DNA of 64,000 nt from Rhodopirellula sp. (GTDB lineage: Bacteria; Planctomycetota; Planctomycetia; Pirellulales; Pirellulaceae), in the NCBI GenBank assembly GCA_041740735.1, contig JBGSLL010000058.1, positions 17,783 through 81,782 on the forward strand. The letters run 5' to 3'. This document shows positions 9,463 to 21,653 of this stretch, piece after piece; the first letter of the stretch is position 1, and every line of letters begins with the position of its first letter. Under the pieces are notes generated by a model that saw only the letters and a program-made list of their open reading frames with translations, was not told the origin of the DNA and ran no database searches. The translations under genes were made by a program, and so were the position numbers.

Positions 9463-10749
9463 ATGAGAATCAGCAAACTCGCAATGGTGGCTATGATGGC
9501 CTGCGGCGTTAACGCAGCAGCGTACTCTGGCGCCCATGCAAACGAAATTAATCTTGTATCACACTGTGCCGAAAAAGGCTGTGATTGTGGTCAACCGACT
9601 TGTGGATGTGAATCCGAAGTACCCGCTTGTGACACCGACTGCCCAGCAGGTTGCGACAGCGGTTGCGAAGCGGGATGTGACGGGGGTTGTGACTCCTGTG
9701 GTTGCGGTCTCTTAGGGGATTGCAACCTTGGTGACCCGTGGCAACTCTTCGGAGAACGCGATGGTTGGTCGGCTGGAGGTTGGGCTCAATTGGGTTATCA
9801 CACCAAGGCCCTTCCACTGTTCAACAGCCGCCCTGACGAAGTTCAACTTCAACAGGCTTGGTTGTATGCTCAGAAGGCCATCGACACAACCGACGGATTC
9901 GATCTCGGTGGACGGATCGATTACGTTTATGGAACCGACGGTCCCGATACCCAAGCGTTCGGTCTTTCGAACGATCATTGGGACAACGGCTGGGAACACG
10001 GAGCCGATTACGGGCAAGCGATTCCACAACTTTACGGCGAAGCGGGTTACGGGGATTTGTCCGTGAAGTTCGGTCACTTCTACACCATCATCGGATGGGA
10101 AGTGGTTCAAGCGACCGGTAACTTCTTCTACAGCCATGCCTATACGATGTACAACAGCGAGCCGTTTACGCACACCGGTGCACTCGCAACGTACAATGCG
10201 TCGGATGACTTGACCGTCTACGGTGGCTACGTTCTGGGATGGGACAGCGGATTCGAAGACAACGGCGATGCGTTCCTCGGTGGAGCCTCGATGGCGTTGA
10301 CAGAAGATTTGAAAGTCACTTACGCAACCGTCTTTGGACGCTTCGGTAAAGAGACCGGAGAACGAGGTTACATGCAATCGGTCGTTGCCGACTACGCGGC
10401 GTCCGACAATCTTCAGTACATCTTCCAAACCGACTGGTTGGACACAGAAGATGCTGCTGGCGATGACTTCCGTAAGACCTTCGACATCAATCAATACTTG
10501 ATCTACACGATCAACGATTGCTGGGCAGCAGGCACTCGTTTCGAATGGTACAACGCCGATACCGGTGTCTACAACGGAGACAACGATATCTATGCACTCA
10601 CAGCCGGTGTGAACTACAAACCACACGCTAACGTAACCATTCGTCCCGAAATTCGTCACGACTGGGTCTTTGGTGATTCAACTGAGATCCTCGAAAACGA
10701 CAGCGACAGTCAAACTACGTTCGGTATCGATTCGATCTTCACTTTTTAA
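9463..10749 (+). CDS. outer-membrane beta-barrel (porin-like) protein with a cysteine-rich N-terminal module
   Basis: Signal peptide ending AHA-NE. There are 14 Cys between residues 35 and 87. The body is Gly/Tyr/Asp-rich with alternating residues. The C-terminus IDSIFTF carries the terminal aromatic residue typical of OMPs. Confidence 0.65.
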   Translation: MRISKLAMVAMMACGVNAAAYSGAHANEINLVSHCAEKGCDCGQPTCGCESEVPACDTDCPAGCDSGCEAGCDGGCDSCGCGLLGDCNLGDPWQLFGERDGWSAGGWAQLGYHTKALPLFNSRPDEVQLQQAWLYAQKAIDTTDGFDLGGRIDYVYGTDGPDTQAFGLSNDHWDNGWEHGADYGQAIPQLYGEAGYGDLSVKFGHFYTIIGWEVVQATGNFFYSHAYTMYNSEPFTHTGALATYNASDDLTVYGGYVLGWDSGFEDNGDAFLGGASMALTEDLKVTYATVFGRFGKETGERGYMQSVVADYAASDNLQYIFQTDWLDTEDAAGDDFRKTFDINQYLIYTINDCWAAGTRFEWYNADTGVYNGDNDIYALTAGVNYKPHANVTIRPEIRHDWVFGDSTEILENDSDSQTTFGIDSIFTF

Positions 10750-10788
10750 AGTGTGACTTCGATTCCGAGAACCTATTCGCATCTCGAA

Positions 10789-10828
10789 GCCTGGTTGCTT
10801 TTTCAAAAAAAGCAGCCGGGCTTTTTTC
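10789..10828 (+). terminator. rho-independent terminator candidate after the porin-like gene
   Basis: GCCTGGTTGCT / AGCAGCCGGGC stem (two G-U pairs) with an A/T-rich loop, followed by TTTTTT. Confidence 0.5.
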
Positions 10829-10848: not shown

Positions 10849-11340
10849 CTACGAAGGCGGATTCGCTTGTTCGGCGTATACCCGAAGCTGCTCGATCAAT
10901 CTCGCAAGCTCTGCTGCAGCCGTGGGAAGGATCGTCTCGCAGTGTTCGTTCACGTCAGCCATCGGACCAGCCAAGTCGTCACAGACTTTCGTGACCTGAA
11001 TCGCCCAAGACCGAAGCTGTCTTCGTTTGTCTTCACAAAGCCGTAAGCGACGTTCGGCCTTTTGCACCCGCGCAAACGCCTCGGTCGCCGAAGGCCGATC
11101 CTCGGGGCGAATCGCAGCACGTTTCGTCGCGAGGTTGTCTTTCGCTTCGGTCAGCTCTCTCTCGGCCAATTGCTGCTGGTGTCGCCAATACGTGGGCATT
11201 GTTTGATCAAAATGCTCGCGCGCACGATACACCATCACGCGAAGCTCTTGAAGCGTTTTGTCCCATTCACTGGACAAACGAATCATCCCACCATGAAGCG
11301 CTGCAAGCGAGTCTATGTTGCGCACATTGCTTGTCGACAT
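10849..11340 (-). CDS. hypothetical all-helical protein, paralogue-like partner of the upstream WXG100-like ORF
   Basis: 163 aa, strongly helical and charged. It contains TYWRHQQQLAEREL, which parallels QTWRDEQQRKFAEEF of the 89-aa ORF that ends 3 nt upstream. Confidence 0.55.
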   Translation of the reverse strand: MSTSNVRNIDSLAALHGGMIRLSSEWDKTLQELRVMVYRAREHFDQTMPTYWRHQQQLAERELTEAKDNLATKRAAIRPEDRPSATEAFARVQKAERRLRLCEDKRRQLRSWAIQVTKVCDDLAGPMADVNEHCETILPTAAAELARLIEQLRVYAEQANPPS

Positions 11341-11343
11341 AGT

Positions 11344-11613
11344 CTATTTACCCAAGTAAGCATCAATCTGTTCGGCTTTCCGCATCAAGTACGGAACGTG
11401 TTGCTCGGTCGCTTGGATCAACCGAGTCAGTTGACGCATTTGTGTCGTGAACTCTTCAGCAAATTTACGCTGCTGTTCGTCCCTCCAAGTCTGTTCCAGT
11501 TGATTCATCTGCGAGGCAAGTCCCGTCGAACGCTGCTTGAGCTCTTCGGAGAACCGATGGAGATGAGCAGCGAACTGACGCAATTGTTCAGGGTCGACGA
11601 CCGCTTGATTCAT
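11344..11613 (-). CDS. small helical-hairpin protein, WXG100/ESAT-6-like (non-canonical W-R-D)
   Basis: 89 aa. The N-terminal VDPEQLRQFA, Trp at residue 43 and following F-x-x-x-F fit the WXG100 pattern (compare YukE and EsxA W43, recalled). The Gly of W-x-G is missing. Confidence 0.55.
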   Translation of the reverse strand: MNQAVVDPEQLRQFAAHLHRFSEELKQRSTGLASQMNQLEQTWRDEQQRKFAEEFTTQMRQLTRLIQATEQHVPYLMRKAEQIDAYLGK

Positions 11614-11690
11614 GATAGAGGAATCCGTATGAAGGAGAAAGAATTGACGATTTCATGGAAGGGAGCCGCAAGCAATGGTTCGCTTAGGCT

Positions 11691-12602
11691 CTATCGCGAT
11701 GCAGTCGACTGCTTCGCAATATCCTGTTCCACTTGCTTGAGTTGACGGGTGTAGTGCTCTAACGTTAACTCGATCCCAAGCCTCTCCGCAGTTTCGCACA
11801 GTAAGCGAAGTGCCGCTTGTCGAATCGGAAGAGGGGCTACCACCGCACGGCGTAGCCCCGCTGCACGCAGTGCCGTCATCGCTTCGACGTCCCGACCGAG
11901 ACTTAGCAAACATTTTCCCTTGAGCAAATTGGCTTGCGGTGAAAATTCGTCGAACTTGATGAGTTCTTCGAGTTCCTTAACTGCTAAGTCATGCTGCTCC
12001 GAGTCGATGTAAGCTTCTGCGAGCACGAGCCGGAGATTTTGTAGGGAAGGGTCTCGGGCAAGCCGATTTTTGCAAACTTCAATTCTTCGAAATGCCCAAT
12101 CTTCACGGCTCCGTTTAACCTCGCGGTCCATCTCTTTGGTTCGGAGCTTGCCCGCCAATTCGCTGACTTCACGATACTGTTGAAGGGAGCGAGCGAGTGT
12201 CGCTTCTTCGAGTTCCCACTTCAAAGACTTCTCATCCGGAAATAGGCGAACGGCTTCGGTCAATACGCGTTTCGCTTCAGCCGGTCGATTCTCCTTCCGA
12301 TAAATCGTCGCTAATTCTTGGTAAGCGCCCATGTCCGTGGGACAGGACTTCAGCAGATGCTCAAGTTCTTGTCGCCGTTCCCGAATCAGTTTGGGGTTGA
12401 TCGGAGGAAGTGCATCGGGATCAACAATGGGTGCATTCTTGAGCAACAACTCCTCTGGGCGAACCGGTCGCCACTGGCCCCCGTTCGTCGAGCTCAACTC
12501 AGAAGTTGGTGCAGATCGCTTGGAGGCTTCACGCTTTGCGTCGTTCGCGGAAGAGGGCTGCGACGAGTTCGCCGATTCGGAAGACTCGTTCGTGGTAGAC
12601 AT
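11691..12602 (-). CDS. TPR-repeat protein
   Basis: Repeated helix-turn-helix units (YQELATIYRKENRPAEAKRVLTEAVRLFP; LVLAEAYIDSEQHDLAVKELEELI; LLKGKCLLSLGRDVEAMTALRAA). Start placed at the ATG at 12602 (MSTTNESS). The longest ORF reaches 12806 and would overlap the J-protein gene by 37 nt. Confidence 0.6.
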   Translation of the reverse strand: MSTTNESSESANSSQPSSANDAKREASKRSAPTSELSSTNGGQWRPVRPEELLLKNAPIVDPDALPPINPKLIRERRQELEHLLKSCPTDMGAYQELATIYRKENRPAEAKRVLTEAVRLFPDEKSLKWELEEATLARSLQQYREVSELAGKLRTKEMDREVKRSREDWAFRRIEVCKNRLARDPSLQNLRLVLAEAYIDSEQHDLAVKELEELIKFDEFSPQANLLKGKCLLSLGRDVEAMTALRAAGLRRAVVAPLPIRQAALRLLCETAERLGIELTLEHYTRQLKQVEQDIAKQSTASR

Positions 12603-12769
12603 GCCGACAAGAAGCCCAAGGTGATAGCGCGGAAAGGAAATGACAACTCTGCTATTGTGATCGATCCTAAGGCCAAGAGCAACTCTATCTGAACGAGTAA
12701 GATTCCGGCCCGCCATTGACCATAATAGGTGATCAATCACTTGCGAGAGGTTTAAGCTATCACTGCGAG

Positions 12770-14395
12770 CTAGCGAATCACCGTTTGCAGTGCCGCGAAA
12801 AGACATAACCCACCATCAAGTCGCATGAAATGGTGGATGATGTTCGTCAAATCAGAACGATTGATATTCGCACAAATTGCTGCAATTCGCGACGCATGGA
12901 CATCAATCGTCTCGGGACTCGACTTAACATAACGAAACAATCGAGATCTCCACTTTTCTCCATAAGAAGCAAGCATTCCCCTTCTCATCGCATTTTCTTG
13001 ACGGGGCTGAAGAAACTTAGGATACAAATAGCCATAAAAACTCCATAACAACCCTGCAAAAAGGGAAATGATTCCGATTCCAAAGAAGAGCCCAACTGCA
13101 TCGCCTGTTAATGAAAAGGACGTCATCACAAGCAGTAAGCATCCGAGTGTTGTGCCACATAATAACCACAAAACAAGCGGATAGGTTTTGTAATGAGACT
13201 CCGTGCGTCCAGCGGCTGATGTTACCTCCACCGCAGTCGGTTCTAGATCGCGGATCAAATGCATCGTTTGCACAGCAATCCTCTCCATCGGAACGGTGTT
13301 CGATTCCATCTCGAATGCTTCAACCTGTTGCACCAGCTTATAAACGACCGAGACCCAGATGCGGTCTTCCTCTTCATTGCCAAGCGGAAAAGCCCGTTGT
13401 ACACCGCTTGCATCGCGGGCGATCTCCGCGAGCAGATCGACGATCTTCGATAATGAGGCTCCGGTCTCCGCTTGACAAGCCAGTCGCAATGCCTTGAGCA
13501 GCTTTTCACGGATGGGATCTCTTAAAGGTGACGACGCTCGTAGTTTTAGAAGTTGGCGGATCTCAGCGACGAACTCAAGATCGTTTTGACGCGCGATGTC
13601 CAACTCAATCGAATGCGATTCTAAATCCGAGAGCATCGCATCAATCCATTGCGGCGGTGCCACCCAAACCGCAGATTGCAAAAGTCGCAAACAAAAAGTC
13701 GCTCGCATGACCGGATCCGTCTGATGAATCGATTGTTCACAGCGTTGAAGCAGCAATGCAAATCGACCAAATGGAATCTTCTTGACCAATCGTAACCAAA
13801 CCGGCTCTGTGAGCATGTAGAATACTGGTGATCGCAACTCTTTCGCTACAAACTCGACCGTTCGCTCGTCGCTTGCATCGGACGCCCCCCCTCGCAAGTA
13901 TTCCGTAGCAAGCATCGTCAATCCCGGATCTGAGGGAAATGCTACCAATCCCTCAATGAGTCGCCCCAAGTATTTTGCCGTCGGTTTCCCTTCGGTCGCA
14001 TCCGCCAATACAGCAGCCAAATAGTAATCGGGCGGAGTGCGACGTACTTGAGTCCGCAATCTCGCAGCGGCTGCCGAAGGATCGATCAAAGCGAGTTCGC
14101 TCAGTGTTCGCTCTCGCTTTATTTCAGAAGGTTCAGCCGGAGTGGTCTTTACAGGAACCGAATTCGTCCAAGTGTCCGCTGCGATTGAGAGTTCTTGTTG
14201 GCGGCTGCCGTAACGAAGCTGCTTTTCCAATTGTTCGTAGGCGTCGCGAACACGTCGAAACTCATCAGGATGCGTTTCCGGCTTGTATTGGCGAATCGCG
14301 ACGCCATACGCCCGCTTCAAATCACGCCGATCGTAACCCTGCTCCAATACGAAAAATCCAACCGGATCATGCGGCAACAAACGCAAATCGCTCAC
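12770..14395 (-). CDS. membrane-anchored J-domain (DnaJ-like, DjlC-like) co-chaperone
   Basis: N-terminal J domain DLKRAYGVAIRQYKPETHPDEFRRVRDAYEQL with an intact HPD. Long helical middle. Two adjacent TM helices (PLVLWLLCGTTLGCLLLVMTSF; GLFFGIGIISLFAGLLWSFYGYL). GTG start overlaps the upstream stop (GTGA). Confidence 0.8.
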   Translation of the reverse strand: MSDLRLLPHDPVGFFVLEQGYDRRDLKRAYGVAIRQYKPETHPDEFRRVRDAYEQLEKQLRYGSRQQELSIAADTWTNSVPVKTTPAEPSEIKRERTLSELALIDPSAAAARLRTQVRRTPPDYYLAAVLADATEGKPTAKYLGRLIEGLVAFPSDPGLTMLATEYLRGGASDASDERTVEFVAKELRSPVFYMLTEPVWLRLVKKIPFGRFALLLQRCEQSIHQTDPVMRATFCLRLLQSAVWVAPPQWIDAMLSDLESHSIELDIARQNDLEFVAEIRQLLKLRASSPLRDPIREKLLKALRLACQAETGASLSKIVDLLAEIARDASGVQRAFPLGNEEEDRIWVSVVYKLVQQVEAFEMESNTVPMERIAVQTMHLIRDLEPTAVEVTSAAGRTESHYKTYPLVLWLLCGTTLGCLLLVMTSFSLTGDAVGLFFGIGIISLFAGLLWSFYGYLYPKFLQPRQENAMRRGMLASYGEKWRSRLFRYVKSSPETIDVHASRIAAICANINRSDLTNIIHHFMRLDGGLCLFAALQTVIR

Positions 14396-15585
14396 GGAAA
14401 TCCACCTGGCATTGCTCCCGATCGCGGAAAATTCGGTGGCGAAAAACTCGGTCGCGGTGTGGAAGAGCTCGGCGAGAAACTGGGGGGTGTGAAACGAGGC
14501 GGAGCGTAATAGGGAGGCAGAACCTCAATCGGTTTTTGTATCTCTTTTATCCGATCCATGATTTCTTGATGCGATCGGTTTCGCCTTTCTCGAATTTCAC
14601 GCATCAATTCCTCGTGCCGCTCGGAAGCCGTTCGATCGAGATTCAACGATCCCCTTTCCATTGAGCTGCGGAAATGGGGCGGTAGCTCGTTTGCAATTCC
14701 GCCAGATGGTATTGCGCCAGTTGGCATTGAATCGGGCATCTTCAAGGCAGGTACCACCGGTGGCTGTGGAACCGTTGGTACTTGATACACTGGCGGGCGA
14801 ACCGGTTGTTGTGCAGGATACGAACTTTGGTAAGGAGGGTTGCGCGGCGATCGATTACTGGCTCGCGACAGCGGTACGATGATGCTTGCCGCAATGAACA
14901 TAGCAATTCCAACCAATTTCATGCCGGAGAGGGAACTTACTGAAAATGCATTTCCCTGGGACCACCGTTTTCGGTTCGCCGGATCGAGAAACAAGTCAAA
15001 CCAATCGCGTTCCAATTCATAGATTCGAGGGTGCCGCTCAACGAAACTCGCAATCATTTGGCAGCTTGAATGGACGCGGTTCTCTGCGATGATGGCCTCA
15101 ATGTACTGTTCTTTGAGAGAACCGGACTGAGCCGCTGAACCGATCACTCCTTGTTGCAATGAGTAAGCGAATTTCACATCGCCCGTTTCTCTTTCAATGC
15201 CGAGTAGTTCGTTGCGACACTTTGCCACTTCCGAAAATCGTTTGGCCCGAGCTGCAAATTCGGGAAGCCGATCGTTTCGCAGGAATCGCAAATGCTCGCG
15301 GAGTTTGTCTTCGGGCAACTGATAAAACTCTAACTGCACGATTTGCAAACAACGACTGGCTCGCTCTTGCAATCGTGCTTCAACTTGCGGATCCATTGGA
15401 GCTTTCGCCGACACTCCCTCCTGAGTCGAGCGAGGGAGAGAACCTGACCATAGTTCGTTACGGCGACGAATGATTTGAGCTGATTGCCACATCGGATTGA
15501 GTTCTAACATTTCACGAATGTACGCCTTCACGATCGTCGAATCGAGCGACGGTGAGTGTTTCGCATCGTGTTGGGTTTCTCTCAC
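14392..15585 (-). CDS. hypothetical single-pass membrane protein with a proline-rich C-terminal region
   Basis: ~220-aa helical N-terminal domain, one TM (LVGIAMFIAASIIVPL), then Pro-rich low complexity (PPYQSSYPAQQPVRPPVYQVPTVPQPPVVP; PPRFTPPSFSPSSSTPRPSFSPPNFP). GTG start overlaps the Hsp70 stop (GTGA). Confidence 0.6.
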   Translation of the reverse strand: MRETQHDAKHSPSLDSTIVKAYIREMLELNPMWQSAQIIRRRNELWSGSLPRSTQEGVSAKAPMDPQVEARLQERASRCLQIVQLEFYQLPEDKLREHLRFLRNDRLPEFAARAKRFSEVAKCRNELLGIERETGDVKFAYSLQQGVIGSAAQSGSLKEQYIEAIIAENRVHSSCQMIASFVERHPRIYELERDWFDLFLDPANRKRWSQGNAFSVSSLSGMKLVGIAMFIAASIIVPLSRASNRSPRNPPYQSSYPAQQPVRPPVYQVPTVPQPPVVPALKMPDSMPTGAIPSGGIANELPPHFRSSMERGSLNLDRTASERHEELMREIRERRNRSHQEIMDRIKEIQKPIEVLPPYYAPPRFTPPSFSPSSSTPRPSFSPPNFPRSGAMPGGFP

Positions 15586-17477
15586 GAGCGTTCTCCATTA
15601 GGATCTAGTCCGAGCGCCGACAAACAGAGGAGCAGGTACTGTTGGGCCGCAGCAAATTCGGTTCGATCCGCACGGTTCATTGCTGCTTCGTAAGCATCGA
15701 GCGCTCCGTCGAGTTGTTCTCGCTGAGTGGGGTGCAGTTCGCCGAGCATGCGTTCTGCAAACCTCGCCAATTGTTGATTCGCCAGATCTTCTCGCGGATA
15801 AAATTTCATCTCCTTGATTCGTTTTCGAGCGGCTTCGACCGCTTTGGGTGAAAGCCCCTTTACATGATTGGTGAGAACGGTGTGAAATTTCTTGCCGCCC
15901 GGCGCGTAAGCTTCGACTTCGAGCACACCGCTTAGGTCATAAGTAAAGCGAATGTAAAATGGACTCCCCGCTGGGCCCGGCGGCATCGAGCTGACTTCGA
16001 GTACACCGAGCAGTACGTTATCGGCAACCTTCCGGGCATCTCCTTGAAAAACTTTCACAGTAACCGACTGTTGGTTCGCCACCACAGTACTAAAAACCTG
16101 TTCGCGCGAGATAGGGATCGTGCTGTTGCGATGCAAAACAGGCGAAAAGTATCCATCCTGGATCTGGCCCCCGAGTTCGCGTACCACCTCGACCCCCATG
16201 GTAAAGGGGCAAACATCGGTCATTACCATGTCATCGACTGCAGCGTCTTCCCCAATTAACGCTGCTTGAATTGCAGCCCCAAGTGCGACGACTTCATCTG
16301 GGTTATACCGCATCACAGCTGGTTGACCAAAAAACTCTTGGACAAAAATTTGCAACATGTTCATCCGAGTTGCCCCTCCCACGAGAATGATTTCGTCAAT
16401 CTCGGTCGGCTTTAGCTCTGCATCACGAAGCGCACGAGCGATGGGGGATGCTACACGTTGCATCAGAGGGTTGCATAGCCTCGAAAACACCTTTCGATCG
16501 ATTCGAAACCGTTTTGGTTTGTCGCCAAAACGACCGTCAACATCGGGAACTCGAATCGATGCTTCTTCTTCGGTAGCGAGTGTCCGTTTGGCCGATTCAC
16601 ATTCGCTCCGCAAACGGGCGACTCTCAAGGGATCATTGAGTTCTGCTAGTTCGAGACGCGAGTTCTCTGCATTGAGCACTTCTGAAACGATTCGGTCAGT
16701 AAAATCTTCGCCCCCGAGTAGACTCTCACCCGCACTGGCTCGGATCTCAAGCGTCGATTCGAACACTTCCATTACGGTAACGTCAAACGTTCCGCCGCCG
16801 AGGTCAATCACTACGATGTTCTTTTCTTCTTTGCGATCATGGAAACCGTACATCAAAGCGGCAGCAGTTGGTTCGTTAATCATTCGCCGAACATGTAGCC
16901 CCGCCATTTCGCCCGCGATCCGAGTTGCTTGGCGAGCGTGATCATTAAAGTAGGCTGGTACCGTGATGACAGCGTTGGTGACATCGCAACCCAATGCGAG
17001 CGACGCATCGCTGCGTAGCGAACGAAGCACGAGACTACTCAACTCATGAGGTGTAAATTCTTTGGTCCCAAGCACAAAACGTCGATCTTGTCCCATGTAG
17101 CGTTTGAAACACCACACACAGGATTCGGGGTGGGTGACTCGCAATTCTTTCGCCGTTTGACCGACGACGACTTCCCCACTAGGAAGCACTCCCACTACGG
17201 ACGGTGTCATCACACTTCCGTGAGCATTGGGAATCAAGACTGGTTTGCCGTCATGAAAAACAGTGACGAGCGAATTGGTCGTGCCAAGGTCGATGCCAAT
17301 GCAAACATCTGAGTCGTATTGACCAGGCGTGAAAAGAGAAGGATCCATCGTCGCGCGTTCTTCAGAGCCCAAGAAGAGGGTAGAGTGACTTCGAAGGTAT
17401 TCTAGTGTCTCGCTACTGTCGCGTGTAGAGTGGACTACTTCGGGATGAGCGGCTGTCCTGGTTTGGGAACTCGCCAT
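15582..17477 (-). CDS. Hsp70-family chaperone, HscC-type (not DnaK)
   Basis: Contains IGIDLGTTNS, VITVPAYFND, INEPTAAAL, VIDLGGGTFDV and ILVGGATRM. The substrate-binding segment TDVCPFTMGVEV resembles E. coli HscC TDICPYSLGVEV. The C-terminal helical lid has no EEVD. The alternative ATG at 17348 (MDPSLFTPG) would remove the 43-nt overlap with the upstream ORF. Confidence 0.9.
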   Translation of the reverse strand: MASSQTRTAAHPEVVHSTRDSSETLEYLRSHSTLFLGSEERATMDPSLFTPGQYDSDVCIGIDLGTTNSLVTVFHDGKPVLIPNAHGSVMTPSVVGVLPSGEVVVGQTAKELRVTHPESCVWCFKRYMGQDRRFVLGTKEFTPHELSSLVLRSLRSDASLALGCDVTNAVITVPAYFNDHARQATRIAGEMAGLHVRRMINEPTAAALMYGFHDRKEEKNIVVIDLGGGTFDVTVMEVFESTLEIRASAGESLLGGEDFTDRIVSEVLNAENSRLELAELNDPLRVARLRSECESAKRTLATEEEASIRVPDVDGRFGDKPKRFRIDRKVFSRLCNPLMQRVASPIARALRDAELKPTEIDEIILVGGATRMNMLQIFVQEFFGQPAVMRYNPDEVVALGAAIQAALIGEDAAVDDMVMTDVCPFTMGVEVVRELGGQIQDGYFSPVLHRNSTIPISREQVFSTVVANQQSVTVKVFQGDARKVADNVLLGVLEVSSMPPGPAGSPFYIRFTYDLSGVLEVEAYAPGGKKFHTVLTNHVKGLSPKAVEAARKRIKEMKFYPREDLANQQLARFAERMLGELHPTQREQLDGALDAYEAAMNRADRTEFAAAQQYLLLCLSALGLDPNGERS

Positions 17478-19333
17478 TTCGATTTCAATCTGACCCTTTT
17501 TTGAGCATCCTTAAGCTGCGCGTCGGTGCTTTCAATCGGGCTTAATTTATAGGACATGCTGCCGAACGGAGGACTGTGATAGCTTTCCAAGGAGTTTCCG
17601 GTACAGCACAATCCGGTGAGGTCGCCATCACTTAACTCGAATCCGAAAATCAAGACGTTTGGTCGAAACGGATCGATCGCATTAGAATCATGGGCAGGAG
17701 CTGTCCATTCGCTGGACACACCCAAGGCGTACAGAAAAATGATCTGCAGTCCATCGCGATTTTTGGCAAGATAACCGCCCAGAGGCCGGGTTTGCGCGGG
17801 ATGCTTCGGGTTGAATATCTCCGCGCGAATCGTTCGTCCATCACCCAAGCATTCCGTAAAAATGATTCCGAGTTCGCCCGCATTTCCGACACCCGAAAAC
17901 GCTCCTCGATACGTTTTCCCTGCCGCACATGCTTGGAGAAGCTCAGTAGGTATTTGATTTTGGATTTTTGCGAGCGCCTTGCTGGGACTGGCAAGCAATT
18001 CTTTCGCACGTGCCGCATAGGGAGAATTGGCAGGAAGCACCAACATGAGTGGCAATAGATATCGGCCCAGGATAAGTGTCGCACGTTTTTCCATCGATTG
18101 GATCTGTTCTCTCTCTGATCGAATTGACGTCGAGATCTGATTACGTCGATTCAGCGAAGTCACTTTTGATGGCTTCACCGCAGAAAAATCGAACTGTGGA
18201 GATCTGAGTGTGTTTTCTGCTATTTCGATGAGTGCAGGAGCAATCTTGTCAATTCTCTGCTGGAGATCGATCGTGGTCGCGCGTTGCTTTGCCTGGTTGG
18301 ACCAAACCGTTAGCACCATTCGTACGACACCGGCCATTTCCAGGAGCTCAGGGTTGGGCAGTGTGTTCGCGTCTCCGTTTCGGTGAAAGATTGGCAAATG
18401 GTATTGATTGCCACCCCGAGTTGGATCCCGCACGAGCATATTTGAAAGTTCGAGTTCCTCTCCGTTTTTCCATCGAGTGACGTAGTAGACGTGACGGCTC
18501 GTCACACGAGGCAGCGTTGAGAAATGAAACAGATCGACCGCGAACGTCACATGGTGCAGCTCTCTACCGGAAATATTCTTGGCAACGTATCGACCTTGAA
18601 ATAATTCAGAGTAGCCCTGCGGGCGATATTGCGAGGCCACCTCCGGTGTGATGTTTCGTTCCACGGGAGTGAATCGCACGGTAACGAGAGGCGAACTGGA
18701 CTGGGGCCCTGAGAACTGTTCAGGCAGCTCAGGGATGAGTTCGTCCCAAGCACGAGCGCGGGACGAATGCATGCGAGTGTGCTTAACTGCGTCAATACGA
18801 TTAGCGATCACGCCATCTGTATCTTTTTCGGCGTAGTAAAGTTCAATGTTTGACCAATGTTCAGCCCAGAAGTTGTCGTCGATGGTGCGTGATTGCTGGA
18901 CCCAACGACCTGCCCCCGAGTCGTAGTACTCGAACGTCTCGTCATGGGTGAAATCGCCTCGTCTGGCGCGCGCCAGCCGACTTTTTGCACGTTCGATTAT
19001 TTCGTCGCGCCGTTGCTTGGCTCGCTCGACCTCTTTGACACTATCCACATTGAGGCCGACAATATGACTCGCCGCCAATCGTACTTCGGGGACCGTTGAA
19101 TTGCGTGCCAGAGTATCCATGAAACGTGCAAGTGGGTCGCCATTGACTCGATCACCGGCGAGCCGATAGCTCTCGGTGATCTCTTTCGCGATCCCTGCGT
19201 AGGCATCTTGAACGGGGCCTTTGACCGGTGGGTCGAGTGGGCGCTGAGGTGACCGAGATTGTGACCAGCCGATCGTGTCGTCAACGACGAGCAGACACGA
19301 AACTGCCAAAATCATTCCGCAGATGTTCTTCAC
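17435..19333 (-). CDS. hypothetical secreted protein (first gene of the Hsp70 operon)
   Basis: Signal peptide MKNICGMILAVSCLLVV. 632 aa with no recognisable domain. Co-directional with the Hsp70 ORF and overlapping or abutting it. Confidence 0.6.
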   Translation of the reverse strand: MKNICGMILAVSCLLVVDDTIGWSQSRSPQRPLDPPVKGPVQDAYAGIAKEITESYRLAGDRVNGDPLARFMDTLARNSTVPEVRLAASHIVGLNVDSVKEVERAKQRRDEIIERAKSRLARARRGDFTHDETFEYYDSGAGRWVQQSRTIDDNFWAEHWSNIELYYAEKDTDGVIANRIDAVKHTRMHSSRARAWDELIPELPEQFSGPQSSSPLVTVRFTPVERNITPEVASQYRPQGYSELFQGRYVAKNISGRELHHVTFAVDLFHFSTLPRVTSRHVYYVTRWKNGEELELSNMLVRDPTRGGNQYHLPIFHRNGDANTLPNPELLEMAGVVRMVLTVWSNQAKQRATTIDLQQRIDKIAPALIEIAENTLRSPQFDFSAVKPSKVTSLNRRNQISTSIRSEREQIQSMEKRATLILGRYLLPLMLVLPANSPYAARAKELLASPSKALAKIQNQIPTELLQACAAGKTYRGAFSGVGNAGELGIIFTECLGDGRTIRAEIFNPKHPAQTRPLGGYLAKNRDGLQIIFLYALGVSSEWTAPAHDSNAIDPFRPNVLIFGFELSDGDLTGLCCTGNSLESYHSPPFGSMSYKLSPIESTDAQLKDAQKRVRLKSKWRVPKPGQPLIPK

Positions 19334-19505: not shown

Positions 19506-19629
19506 TAAGGAATTTTTGAAATGTTTGACAAAATTTGGCGACGCCCAGCATTGTAAATCGCATGAGCCTGAAGAGTGGACTTGTAGTAACGCAGCGGTCC
19601 TCAACCGCCTGAACAAAGGAACATGCCCG

Positions 19630-21069
19630 ATGAGATCGAAAATAGTTTGCGGTGTATTTGTCGTTGCTCTCTGGTGCGTTAACAATGTAGGTGCGGTACA
19701 GCCGCAAACGCCACTGCGACAAGCGATGGAGCTACTTTCAAGTGGCACGCCCTCCGAAGCGATTCCCTTGTTGGTTGAAGCTGGCCGAGCAGGTGATGCC
19801 GAAGCGGTTTTTCAGCTTGGCAAATGCTATTTGGACGCGATTGGAACGGAAAAGAACGACGAAAAGGCGCTTGCTTGTTTTCGACGCGCGGCCAATCAAG
19901 GGCATGCCGCCTCGATGACGCACGTAGGCTTGATGGTCGGGCAGGGACTGGGAACGAAAGTCGATCGAGAATTAGCAGTGATCTGTTATCAACGGGCTGT
20001 CGAGGCGGGTGATTCGCTCGGCATGTTCCACCTTGCGCTCTGCCTTCGTGATGGCACGGGCGTGACACGCGACGCCCAAAAAGCAGTGGGCTACTTCGAA
20101 AAACTTGCTGACCAACGCGACATTGCCGCGATGGTCCAGCTCGGCGACATGTTGCTCAATGCGAGGGGAATTCCCAAAGACAGTTCAGCGGGATTCCAGT
20201 GGTTTCGAAAAGCCGCGGAACTCGGCGAACCGGCCTGCATGACTGTCGTCGGAATGCTCTTCGAAGATGGCGAGGGCGTTCCCGCCGATCCAAAACAGGC
20301 GTTGCTCTGGTATCGAAAAGCGATGGATGCCAAAGACTCTGAAGGAATGTTTCAACTCGGAAAATGTTATTGGAACGGAATAGGATGTGTCGCCAATCGC
20401 CAAGAATCGATGGAGTGGTTTCACAAGGCTGCCAACGCAAACCATGCTCGCAGTATGTTGATTCTCGGAGCAATGTACGAAGAAGGCGAGGGTGTTACGC
20501 AAGATTTGGCGCAGGCATTCTCATGGTTCGAGAAGTCGGCAAAGCTAGGTGATCCTCAAGCGATGTCAAAAGTGGGCCACTGCTACATGCACGGTCAGGG
20601 GACGGCTGAGGATTTCGCACAAGCCTTCGCATGGAATCGCAAAGCCGCGCTTGCCCAGGATCGGCATGCGATGCATAATCTCGGGATGTGTTACGCGAAT
20701 GGATTGGGAGTAAAGAAGAATCCCAAAACAGCGATGACTTGGTTTCGAAAAGCTGCGAAGCTCGGCCATCCCGAATCCCAGATTTTTGTACGGGCAGAGG
20801 ACGATCCGCATTTCGCAACCATGTTGGCAGCTCAACAGTTGTTTGAAATCGTGGGCGATGTTAATGAGATGTTTGACAGCTTGGGAGCTTCCGGTGGCGA
20901 TAGCGGAAGCCTATTCAATCCCCAAGGCTCGCCGATGATGAATTCGCAAACTCAAGCAACCATTCGCGAGCAAACGCAACGTTATGAAGAACGCCGAGCC
21001 GCCGAAGCTGCCCAGGATGCACACAATCAAAAGATGGACGCTTACTATGATCGGATGCAAAACTTTTGA
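19630..21069 (+). CDS. secreted Sel1-repeat (SLR/TPR-like) protein
   Basis: Signal peptide MRSKIVCGVFVVALWCVNNVGA. About 10 repeats of the Sel1 pattern (A..W..KAA.QG...A...LG.MY..G.GV..D). Gln/Ala-rich C-terminal tail. The ORF track begins at 19516. Confidence 0.8.
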   Translation: MRSKIVCGVFVVALWCVNNVGAVQPQTPLRQAMELLSSGTPSEAIPLLVEAGRAGDAEAVFQLGKCYLDAIGTEKNDEKALACFRRAANQGHAASMTHVGLMVGQGLGTKVDRELAVICYQRAVEAGDSLGMFHLALCLRDGTGVTRDAQKAVGYFEKLADQRDIAAMVQLGDMLLNARGIPKDSSAGFQWFRKAAELGEPACMTVVGMLFEDGEGVPADPKQALLWYRKAMDAKDSEGMFQLGKCYWNGIGCVANRQESMEWFHKAANANHARSMLILGAMYEEGEGVTQDLAQAFSWFEKSAKLGDPQAMSKVGHCYMHGQGTAEDFAQAFAWNRKAALAQDRHAMHNLGMCYANGLGVKKNPKTAMTWFRKAAKLGHPESQIFVRAEDDPHFATMLAAQQLFEIVGDVNEMFDSLGASGGDSGSLFNPQGSPMMNSQTQATIREQTQRYEERRAAEAAQDAHNQKMDAYYDRMQNF

Positions 21070-21653
21070 TCGATGACGACCATCCCATCAGCGAGTTGTC
21101 TCAAGTATTGGCGGACATCGACGCAGGCGTCCCGCTAGCCAGCGAGCGACTTTTGCCATTGGTTTACGATGAGCTGCGTAAACTGGCTGCCATTCAACTC
21201 GCCAACGAACGCCCTGGCCAGACGCTCCAACCGACCGCGCTTGTTCATGAGGCGTTTTTGCGATTGACCGCCGGAGAAGAGCCTCCGATGTGGAAGAATC
21301 AAAGCCATTTCTTCGGGGCTGCTGCGATTGCGATCCGCAGAATTCTTGTCGAAAATGCTCGCCGTAAAAAGAGTCTCAAGCGAGGTGGTGGTGGACATCG
21401 TGAATTCATGGAAGACGAAATCCCCGATGCGCAAAGCGACCCGATCGAAGATATTGTTGCATTGGATGACGCGCTAACGAAGCTGGCTCAGATCAATCCT
21501 GAGGCGGCTAAATTTGTCGAACTGCATTATTTTTCGGGAGTTTCACGCATTCAAGCGGCGGCAATGCTGTCGATCTCGTCGCGTTCAGCGGATCGACTTT
21601 GGGCGTACGCTCGGGCTTGGCTGCGACGAGAGATGACCTCTTGTGATGACTAG
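21066..21653 (+). CDS. ECF-type RNA polymerase sigma factor (TIGR02999 / ECF43-like, kinase-associated group)
   Basis: LLPLVYDELRKLAAIQLANERPGQTLQPTALVHEAFLRL is the signature N-terminus of this family. Region 4 HTH VSRIQAAAMLSISSRSADRLWAYARAWLR. TTG start overlaps the Sel1 stop (TTGA). Confidence 0.85.
   Translation: MIDDDHPISELSQVLADIDAGVPLASERLLPLVYDELRKLAAIQLANERPGQTLQPTALVHEAFLRLTAGEEPPMWKNQSHFFGAAAIAIRRILVENARRKKSLKRGGGGHREFMEDEIPDAQSDPIEDIVALDDALTKLAQINPEAAKFVELHYFSGVSRIQAAAMLSISSRSADRLWAYARAWLRREMTSCDD

Follow-up and report, generated by a model that had tools for sequence, protein, structure and literature searches.

Which of the genes around a planctomycete Hsp70 gene belong with it as one chaperone system? 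The question is raised by a stretch of 64,000 nucleotides from Rhodopirellula sp. (GenBank assembly GCA_041740735.1, contig JBGSLL010000058.1, positions 17,783 to 81,782 of the forward strand), which is called the window here. Seven open reading frames (ORFs) are present on its minus strand from 19333 down to 10849, as the original prediction had described. In the order of transcription, they encode a 632-aa protein, an Hsp70, a 397-aa protein referred to as the middle protein, a J-like membrane protein of 541 aa, a TPR protein, an 89-aa WXG100-family protein and a 163-aa protein. The original prediction regarded all seven genes as one envelope-associated chaperone system. In it, a membrane-tethered Hsp70 would hold, assemble or export the WXG100 and 163-aa proteins, and the 632-aa and TPR proteins would be further subunits. 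The present analysis points elsewhere. Three independent units probably lie side by side in this region, and the chaperone system itself would be the operon of the hsp70, middle and J-like genes (12770-17348), called the triad here, with an HscC-type Hsp70 working at a membrane face.

Gene order in the window and in related loci

The hsp70 gene (15582..17348, minus strand) and the middle gene (14392..15585, minus strand) share a GTGA start/stop overlap at 15582-15585, and the same overlap joins the middle gene to the J-like gene (12770..14395, minus strand) at 14392-14395. Both overlaps were read directly from the sequence. The borders of the triad depend on the choice of start codons. The 43-nt overlap that had been noted between the 632-aa gene (17435..19333, minus strand) and hsp70 is an artefact of the longest Hsp70 ORF, which extends up to 17477. 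The homologues of the Hsp70, mostly of 576-596 aa, start 14-25 residues ahead of the IGIDLGTT motif. This corresponds to M44 in the window protein and gives a product of 588 aa and a gap of 86 nt. The longest ORF of the TPR gene has 371 aa, its homologues have 247-309 aa and the alignment begins at residue 67, so that the start is most likely M69 (about 303 aa; 11691..12602, minus strand), 167 nt after the stop of the J-like gene. Since the homologue-supported starts leave gaps of 86 nt and 167 nt, the tight packing at the borders of the triad is removed.

The conservation of the gene order was then tested. A pattern scan over one genome per GTDB species gave 55 loci, to which three contigs from the protein index were added, and all seven window proteins were compared with these 58 related loci by tblastn. 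The loci of the pattern scan were nearly all from Planctomycetota (Pirellulaceae, Planctomycetaceae, Gimesia, Aeoliella, Lacipirellula and Mariniblastus). The exceptions were one metagenome-assembled genome (MAG) labelled Acidobacteriota and two Firmicutes loci that matched in the J domain only. In almost every locus, an Hsp70 gene (product 52-85% identical) is followed on a single strand by a homologue of the 397-aa gene and then by the J-like gene. The full-length J-like gene was found in 54 loci, 45 of which have at least 2.7 kb of upstream sequence. Among these 45 informative loci, 42 (93%) carry a same-strand Hsp70 gene whose end is <2.2 kb upstream, and the middle gene lies in between. 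Middle homologues lie between the hsp70 and J-like genes in about 45 loci, and the commonest junction within the triad is a 4-nt overlap. Two of the three exceptions (L045 and L046) keep the pair of middle and J-like genes. Therefore, it is the genes of the two membrane proteins that are most tightly linked, and that of the Hsp70 can lie at another place. These two loci (L045 9238-11602 and L046 9248-11602), from Planctomycetaceae MAGs of the UBA2671-like type, have no adjacent Hsp70 gene, and their J loop reads RPE...QPE. In close relatives of the window, the triad stands alone among unrelated housekeeping genes, for instance between the genes for glutamine synthetase and a GT87 glycosyltransferase in L001.

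The remaining four genes behave differently. Neither the 632-aa nor the 163-aa gene was found by tblastn beside the triad in any of the 58 related loci (0/58). The TPR and WXG100 genes occur near it in one (1/58), a contig of Neorhodopirellula pilleata (L008), on the opposite strand and on the other side. For four of the seven genes the order is limited to very close relatives, which is the outcome that the original prediction had named as speaking against itself. The last three genes form a module that is conserved without an Hsp70 or J gene. In Novipirellula galeiformis and Rubripirellula amarantea, a TPR gene is followed by a WXG100 gene and a 165/181-aa gene with no Hsp70 or J gene nearby, and the third product is 75% (N. 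galeiformis) and 60% (R. amarantea) identical to the window 163-aa protein. Stieleria and N. pilleata have the TPR and WXG100 genes only. In L061, L062, L063 and L008, the gene directly upstream of the WXG100 gene encodes a TPR homologue (48-64% identical), in an operon without Hsp70. The module occupies 10849-12602 (minus strand) in the window, 7005-8817 in L061, 7075-8760 in L062, 7261-8270 in L063 and 1927-3167 in L008.

Although all seven genes stand on the same strand, and an identical J-like/TPR junction was seen on a second short contig (L065) that is probably from the same organism, a single seven-gene system can hardly be upheld. The WXG100 protein is much more conserved than the triad proteins: the best 120 of its 385 relatives are 79-94% identical, across Novipirellula, Rubripirellula and Stieleria, as opposed to about 45-50% for the J-like protein, and this is not suggestive of a co-evolving unit. 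The sequence of the Hsp70 has no EEVD-type C-terminus, which is the site bound by TPR co-chaperones. The gaps of 86 nt and 167 nt count in the same direction, yet no terminator-like site was found in either of them, so the seven genes could still be co-transcribed in the window. The scan between the modules was uninformative because promoter-like and terminator-like sites were not more frequent than in shuffled sequence. The nearness of the TPR-WXG100 pair to the triad in N. pilleata, within about 4-5 kb, is the last point on the side of the larger system.

The same nearness would fit a looser functional link, such as co-regulation, between triad and module in the Rhodopirellula/Novipirellula-like clade alone, since the two lie within 5 kb of each other in two genomes, the window and N. 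pilleata L008. However, their orientation and side differ between these genomes. The N. pilleata module is in divergent orientation to the triad, with a restriction-modification island and an Fe-alcohol dehydrogenase gene between the two. At least seven loci of the same clade (L001, L004-L007, L009 and L020) have no module within 7-10 kb, and in N. galeiformis and R. amarantea the module is located elsewhere. A lineage-specific link of this kind is considered very unlikely. The segment 3294-5539 of L008, between the TPR-WXG100 pair and the triad, carries a C5 DNA methyltransferase-like gene, a short helix-turn-helix gene and a further ORF, and, judged from the ORF translations alone, it looks like an inserted restriction-modification island.

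Because of these gene contexts and the corrected starts, the region is divided into three units, namely the lineage-specific 632-aa gene, the triad and the TPR-WXG100-163aa module. The first and the last of these lie beside the triad by chance, or at most through a lineage-specific rearrangement. One part of the original prediction, a dedicated membrane-tethered Hsp70, is retained as the best reading because the Hsp70 belongs to the HscC subfamily, is coupled to a membrane J-fold protein and has no grpE or canonical dnaJ gene in the flanks examined. The other part, the handling or export of the small helical proteins by this Hsp70, has no comparative support because the TPR-WXG100-163aa genes are an Hsp70-free module of their own.

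The Hsp70 and its two membrane partners

The Hsp70, taken as the longest ORF of 631 aa, matches PF00012 with E = 1.5e-134. Its alignment with E. coli HscC gives 40% identity and 395 bits over the full length including the lid, and is gap-free through the C-terminus. The alignment with DnaK gives 35% identity and 337 bits, with large gaps. The hallmarks of HscC have been described as a deletion in lobe I of the nucleotide-binding domain (NBD), an insertion of 4-8 residues in loop L1,2, a deletion in lid helix B and the absence of the GrpE-signature loop (PMC8215388). A gap of 24-27 aa in NBD lobe I (DnaK residues ~76-101) is common to E. coli HscC and all triad Hsp70s, and in a 19-sequence alignment the window protein shares with HscC the deletion of the D211 loop and lid deletions at identical columns. 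Loop L1,2 of the β part of the substrate-binding domain (SBD-β) holds an 8-residue insertion (VRELGGQIQDG), compared with 4-5 residues in E. coli HscC. The motif K-F/I-Y/H-P-R-E/D, KFYPRE, is common to both proteins, and the linker V-M-T-D resembles I-L-T-D of HscC. One hallmark is not shared. The GrpE-signature loop (DnaK ~290-295) is deleted in E. coli HscC and in a Paenibacillus protein, whereas the loop of the window and other planctomycetal proteins is just one residue shorter than that of DnaK. The length of 588 aa is slightly above the quoted HscC range of 550-580 aa.

A small neighbour-joining tree of 19 sequences, without support values, places the triad Hsp70s, a Firmicutes pair and E. 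coli HscC in one clade apart from DnaK and HscA. The identities in this set are 39-44% to HscC, 35-40% to DnaK and 30-33% to HscA. HscC-type Hsp70s of Planctomycetes are already contained in a published tree (PMC8215388). Judged by its shared indels and its position in the tree, the Hsp70 is a member of the HscC subfamily, and the predicted HscC type is borne out by indels, clustering and identity alike. The catalytic and allosteric residues K70, P143, D148, E171 and T173 are kept, and so are R167, Q378 and P419, which are the contacts of P34 and D35 of DnaJ. No grpE or canonical dnaJ gene was seen in the flanks examined, in agreement with the original prediction.

The J-like protein was less easily classified. 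No match of the window protein to the Pfam DnaJ model (PF00226) was obtained at E<=0.1, and in 7 of 18 relatives the model appeared below threshold, the best with E = 5.4e-5 and 23.7 bits against a cutoff of 27.8 bits. The family is small, with 24 relatives in an index of 5.8 billion proteins. Nevertheless, a profile built from 33 N-termini matched about 50 J domains of solved structure. The best E value was 5.5e-7, and Y-K-P-E was placed on Y-H-P-D. An alignment of the single sequence gave the same register, in which K38-P39-E40 occupy the slot of the His-Pro-Asp (HPD) motif. The codons of these residues (14276..14284, minus strand) are the positional equivalent of HPD, as aligned to the HPD of DNAJA1. 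Comparison with DjlB/DjlC by hhalign gave E = 2.8e-5 and a probability of 74% over 57 columns, all within the J domain, with KPETHP.EF opposite HPETDPQGF. By these profile and register criteria, the N-terminus (residues ~7-62; 14210..14377, minus strand) has a true J-domain fold, probably of the short-loop subtype of DjlB/DjlC, and KPE stands where HPD would be expected. The predicted J domain is thus present, but its intact HPD is not. The three residues taken for it, 42-44, lie four downstream of the slot in a variable loop that reads HPA, HPQ, FPE, YPT, APE and others across the family, and D44 is not conserved. Among 46 scored family members, the slot itself reads KPE in 39, RPE in 3, NPE in 3 and KPD in 1, and His never occurs. 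P39 is invariant, and K38 and E40 are conserved at >=90%.

The AlphaFold2 (AF2) model of the J-like protein is all helical with a pLDDT of 84.8. The J helices at 23-36 and 43-62 have a pLDDT of about 90 and are followed by a disordered linker (76-94), an alpha-solenoid (~98-360), the transmembrane (TM) hairpin and a C-terminal helical domain of ~75 aa. The long helices 370-426 and 433-481 carry the hairpin. Kyte-Doolittle analysis gave TM segments at 404-430 and 431-455, and the hairpin (residues ~404-455; 13031..13186, minus strand) is also seen in divergent homologues, as the original prediction would have it. A Foldseek search of the model against the PDB returned just a generic resemblance to TPR/HAT/PPR-like solenoids, with no match at E<0.001 and TM scores <=0.24.

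The middle protein consists of a conserved cytosolic, all-helical domain of ~200 aa, a single TM segment at ~218-243 and a clade-specific Pro-rich tail. The public gene call of an identical protein starts at V19 (379 aa). In most lineages the homologues have ~230 aa, and Y22, P31, R42, P108, R116, P186 and W195 are near-invariant. Basal members of the family are tail-anchored because the chain ends 3-8 residues past the TM segment. The tail of 100-200 aa after the TM segment has been added in the Rhodopirellula/Rubripirellula-like clade, to which the window belongs. The hydropathy plot agrees with the predicted single-pass protein. In contrast, the proposed periplasm-facing gene set finds no counterpart, as the triad has no conserved periplasm-facing component and the Pro-rich tail is a clade-specific addition. 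Residues ~245-397 of the middle protein comprise the stretch ERHEELMREIRERRNRSHQEIMDRIKEIQK, which is helical and charged, together with PPxF/PPNFP repeats. Tails of a similar kind with little sequence conservation occur in Rubripirellula, Rhodopirellula, Aeoliella and other lineages, and this tail is the sole predicted extracytoplasmic part of the triad.

The middle family has 172 representative clusters among 1.84e9 proteins, and no Pfam match was found in 29 members. The AF2 model is of high confidence (pLDDT 88.3; core 95-98). No PDB relative was detected for it, either by structure (Foldseek best E = 0.68) or by sequence. Two candidate identities were rejected. DUF1266 (YbeU/YbeR, PF06889) was considered on account of the ybeU-djlC gene order and the parallel in size; in a comparison by sequence and profile alone, hhalign gave a probability of 0.07%, and BLASTP and Pfam gave nothing. 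A degenerate J domain at the N-terminus (Y22...N30-P31...R42) received an hhalign probability of 0.2% and no PDB or Foldseek match.

Proposed mode of action and the KPE motif

The gene order, the Hsp70 subfamily, the J fold with its register, the topology by hydropathy and the lack of known families are direct results of the analysis. For the understanding of the triad as a system, we infer that the three proteins form a complex, that the KPE J domain stimulates the ATPase of the Hsp70 and which class of clients is served. Translational coupling would supply the two membrane proteins in a fixed proportion. At the cytoplasmic membrane, the middle and J-like proteins would make up a platform on the cytoplasmic face, where the J fold may dock the dedicated Hsp70 in its ATP state via the conserved P-E / R167-Q378-P419 contacts. 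The solenoid, the middle protein or both would select and present the client. Probable clients are membrane-proximal complexes or the cytosolic domains of membrane proteins, in line with what has been proposed for E. coli HscC with DjlB/DjlC. On the present comparison, a membrane-face Hsp70 station would be the most economical model. In other systems, too, a membrane J-fold protein brings an Hsp70 to one side of the membrane, as with DjlA and DnaK, Sec63 and BiP, and Pam18/Pam16 and mtHsp70. Pam16 is a precedent for a J-like domain that lacks HPD and works beside an Hsp70. The DjlA, Sec63 and Pam18 systems rely on a canonical HPD for stimulation, share a housekeeping Hsp70 and are associated with translocons. 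The triad differs from them in having a dedicated Hsp70 with its gene in the operon itself, a single J-like domain and no linked translocon component.

The closest known relative in architecture is the E. coli HscC system, for which the locus ybeQ-ybeR-djlB-ybeT-ybeU-djlC-hscC was used as a reference. DjlC stimulates the ATPase of HscC, and both DjlB and DjlC carry a tail anchor (PMC8215388). Both systems have an Hsp70 of the HscC subfamily with the same diagnostic indels and a J partner in the cytoplasmic membrane whose J domain is at the cytosolic N-terminus. A short loop of equal length and of the pattern xPE-T-xP-xx-F, with Glu replacing the Asp of HPD, is seen in both, and the two J domains are probably of one subtype. 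In both, the J gene is preceded with a 4-nt overlap by the gene of a ~230-235-aa protein, and no GrpE partner is encoded nearby. The differences are also clear. The first position of the motif is K/R/N in the triad and not H. DjlB and DjlC have a tail anchor at the extreme C-terminus, whereas in the triad protein about 75-90 residues come after a TM hairpin. The E. coli hscC gene is convergent, whereas the triad hsp70 is co-directional and translationally coupled, and its product retains the GrpE-signature loop that E. coli HscC has lost. Sel1-repeat genes are part of the E. coli locus, whereas none is conserved near the triads.

Several observations weigh against the reading of the triad as an HscC-type machine of its own, in addition to the gaps without a terminator-like site and the TPR-WXG100 pair near the triad in N. 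pilleata. Across the ~400 aa beyond the J domain, no homology between the J-like protein and DjlB/DjlC was detectable by hhalign or BLASTP. YbeU and YbeR are soluble DUF1266 proteins and are unrelated to the tail-anchored helical protein of the triad. Because homology is confined to the J domain, the likeness to E. coli is one of architecture and not of common descent. Moreover, the exchange H-to-Q in HPD abolishes the stimulation of Hsp70 in all systems that have been tested, a loss of stimulation is also stated for D-to-N, and HPE has been described as the sole tolerated variant (PMC13254874). The KPE J domain may therefore not stimulate the ATPase at all.

This last point leads to a different explanation, in which the KPE J-like domain is non-stimulating ('type IV') and tethers or sequesters the Hsp70, or is a relic, or in which the membrane proteins are clients of the Hsp70, which might help in their insertion, and not its co-chaperones. 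It is in line with the fact that no family member has His at the canonical slot, and reviews call QPD and HPN inactive and presume J-domain proteins (JDPs) without HPD to be non-functional. However, K38, P39, E40 and helices II and III are under purifying selection across the phylum, which argues against a relic. The cognate Hsp70 keeps R167, Q378 and P419, the residues reading P34 and D35. In DnaJ, a backbone carbonyl accepts a hydrogen bond from H33, and a Lys could provide a bond of this type as well. The first position is variable in HscC-linked J domains, with HPE in E. coli and NPE in Firmicutes, and DjlC has been found active by experiment. As for the membrane proteins being clients, DnaK is needed for the biogenesis of tail-anchored DjlC in E. 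coli, according to Peschke et al. 2018 as summarised in PMC8215388. On balance, a non-stimulating J domain or a client role for its carrier is regarded as rather unlikely.

The two Firmicutes loci, L057 8208-11749 (Eubacteriales MAG) and L058 8243-12496 (Paenibacillus sp.), contain an HscC-like Hsp70 gene followed by the gene of an NPE J protein. As in the triad, the Hsp70 clusters with HscC and the J gene comes directly after it, with the J loop NPET-xP-EF; unlike in the triad, there is no middle gene. The J protein of L057 has a single TM segment in the middle of the chain and an extracytoplasmic domain, whereas that of L058 is a soluble protein of 844 aa with many TPR-like repeats. These loci suggest a broader class of HscC partners without His. 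A function of the KPE domain is argued from the purifying selection, the retained Hsp70 contacts and the variable first position (H, K, N, R) in HscC-linked J domains. The full proposal is a three-subunit membrane Hsp70 machine of the whole phylum, in which a J domain with K/R/N-P-E and no His activates a dedicated HscC-type Hsp70, and a tail-anchored protein whose fold has no PDB representative is the obligatory third subunit. It is put forward as a tentative proposal that is less likely than not to be right.

Neighbouring genes and the place of the triad among chaperones

The neighbours of the triad were characterised separately. The 632-aa protein has a signal-like N-terminus by hydropathy, as expected, and belongs to no Pfam, NCBIfam, PADLOC or PHROG family. 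Four relatives are 39-45% identical and have 706-944 aa, and the three homologue contexts that were inspected are all unrelated to the triad. In L067 8001-18475 and L068 6634-15677, its homologues are convergent with a grpE-dnaJ-groEL-groES-groEL cluster at a distance of 1-3 kb, and in the window the family stands beside the HscC-type hsp70. This proximity may be a coincidence because the two contigs are syntenic and count as one independent observation.

In the third unit, the TPR gene product gave Pfam TPR matches above the cutoffs, as had been predicted. The 89-aa and 163-aa genes (11344..11613 and 10849..11340, minus strand) are separated by a 3-nt spacer, which was read directly from the sequence. 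Both small products had been described as WXG100-like. This holds for the 89-aa protein, which matches PF06013 with 43.8 bits against a cutoff of 27.3, but not for the 163-aa protein, which has no Pfam or NCBIfam match, belongs to no described family and reached an hhalign probability of 0.6%. The 89-aa protein is like the WXG100/ESAT-6 family of type VII substrates in its PF06013 match, in the size class of about 90-100 aa and in its helical hairpin. It differs in that W-R-D (W43 R44 D45) replaces W-x-G, within an invariant TWRDEQQRKF block, in that the host is a diderm planctomycete, and in its position between a TPR gene upstream and the 163-aa gene downstream. No type VII FtsK/SpoIIIE ATPase was found in the 16-kb contexts of three WXG100 homologues. 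The role of this WXG100 protein in a diderm planctomycete may deserve a study of its own.

Other explanations of the region were tried and rejected. Heat-shock control by CIRCE was not indicated, as no match with up to 3 mismatches occurs in the window, and no Rfam match for a known RNA element was found there. A defence-system origin was rejected since PADLOC gave marginal hits only, the best being NsnC for the 163-aa protein (E = 5.4e-4, 17.9 bits). A phage origin was likewise rejected since a PHROGs search of the window products gave nothing meaningful. Downstream of the gene string, a hairpin with an 18-bp stem flanked by A and T runs lies at 10786-10824 (plus strand), between the convergent BBP2 porin gene (9463-10749, plus strand) and 163-aa gene (10849-11340, minus strand). 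It is plausible that it is a bidirectional terminator at the 3' end of the minus-strand genes. The N-terminal segment of the BBP2 porin is rich in Cys. On the other side, the segment 19516-23988 is divergent from the 632-aa gene and starts with a Sel1-repeat gene (19516-21069; 517 aa, 9 repeats). This gene overlaps a gene for an extracytoplasmic function (ECF) sigma factor (21066-21653), after which a convergent gene encodes a Ser/Thr kinase-WD40 protein of 770 aa. The Sel1-repeat gene was rejected as a counterpart of ybeQ/ybeT, since a Sel1 homologue occurs in no triad locus.

No published description of the triad operon was found in the searchable literature. The triad is a new form of the HscC/DjlC kind of chaperone. 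Neither the middle protein nor the J-like protein outside its J domain has a Pfam family or a structural relative in the PDB, although the models are confident, and they count as two uncatalogued families. A large JDP survey excluded sequences without HPD (PMC10410713). The J-like family has gone unnoticed because such surveys filtered out non-HPD sequences and the Pfam DnaJ model misses the family.

One false lead is removed by this study, as nothing was found that speaks for an export of WXG100 proteins driven by an Hsp70. The triad itself is of moderate specialist interest for its selected non-HPD J domain and its two uncatalogued partner families. HscC, known since 2002, still lacks a clear cellular role, and sensitivity to Cd2+ and to UV has been reported as its phenotypes (PMC8215388). 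The E. coli partners of HscC are spread across a duplicated locus, and their expression is below detection. In contrast, the compact, translationally coupled three-gene operon, which is conserved throughout Planctomycetota, defines a minimal set of HscC partners, in which the two uncatalogued families are candidate specificity factors. A review of 2026 (PMC13254874) asks whether J domains without HPD are evolutionary accidents or selected variants. Since purifying selection acts on the KPE variant and an Hsp70 of its own is locked to it, this variant is directly testable. If the proposed activation by a His-less J domain is true, the HscC branch would read just the Pro-Glu of the motif, and the rule that J domains without HPD are dead would have a natural exception maintained by selection. 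The triad would then also offer a second and genetically cleaner entry to the function of HscC systems.

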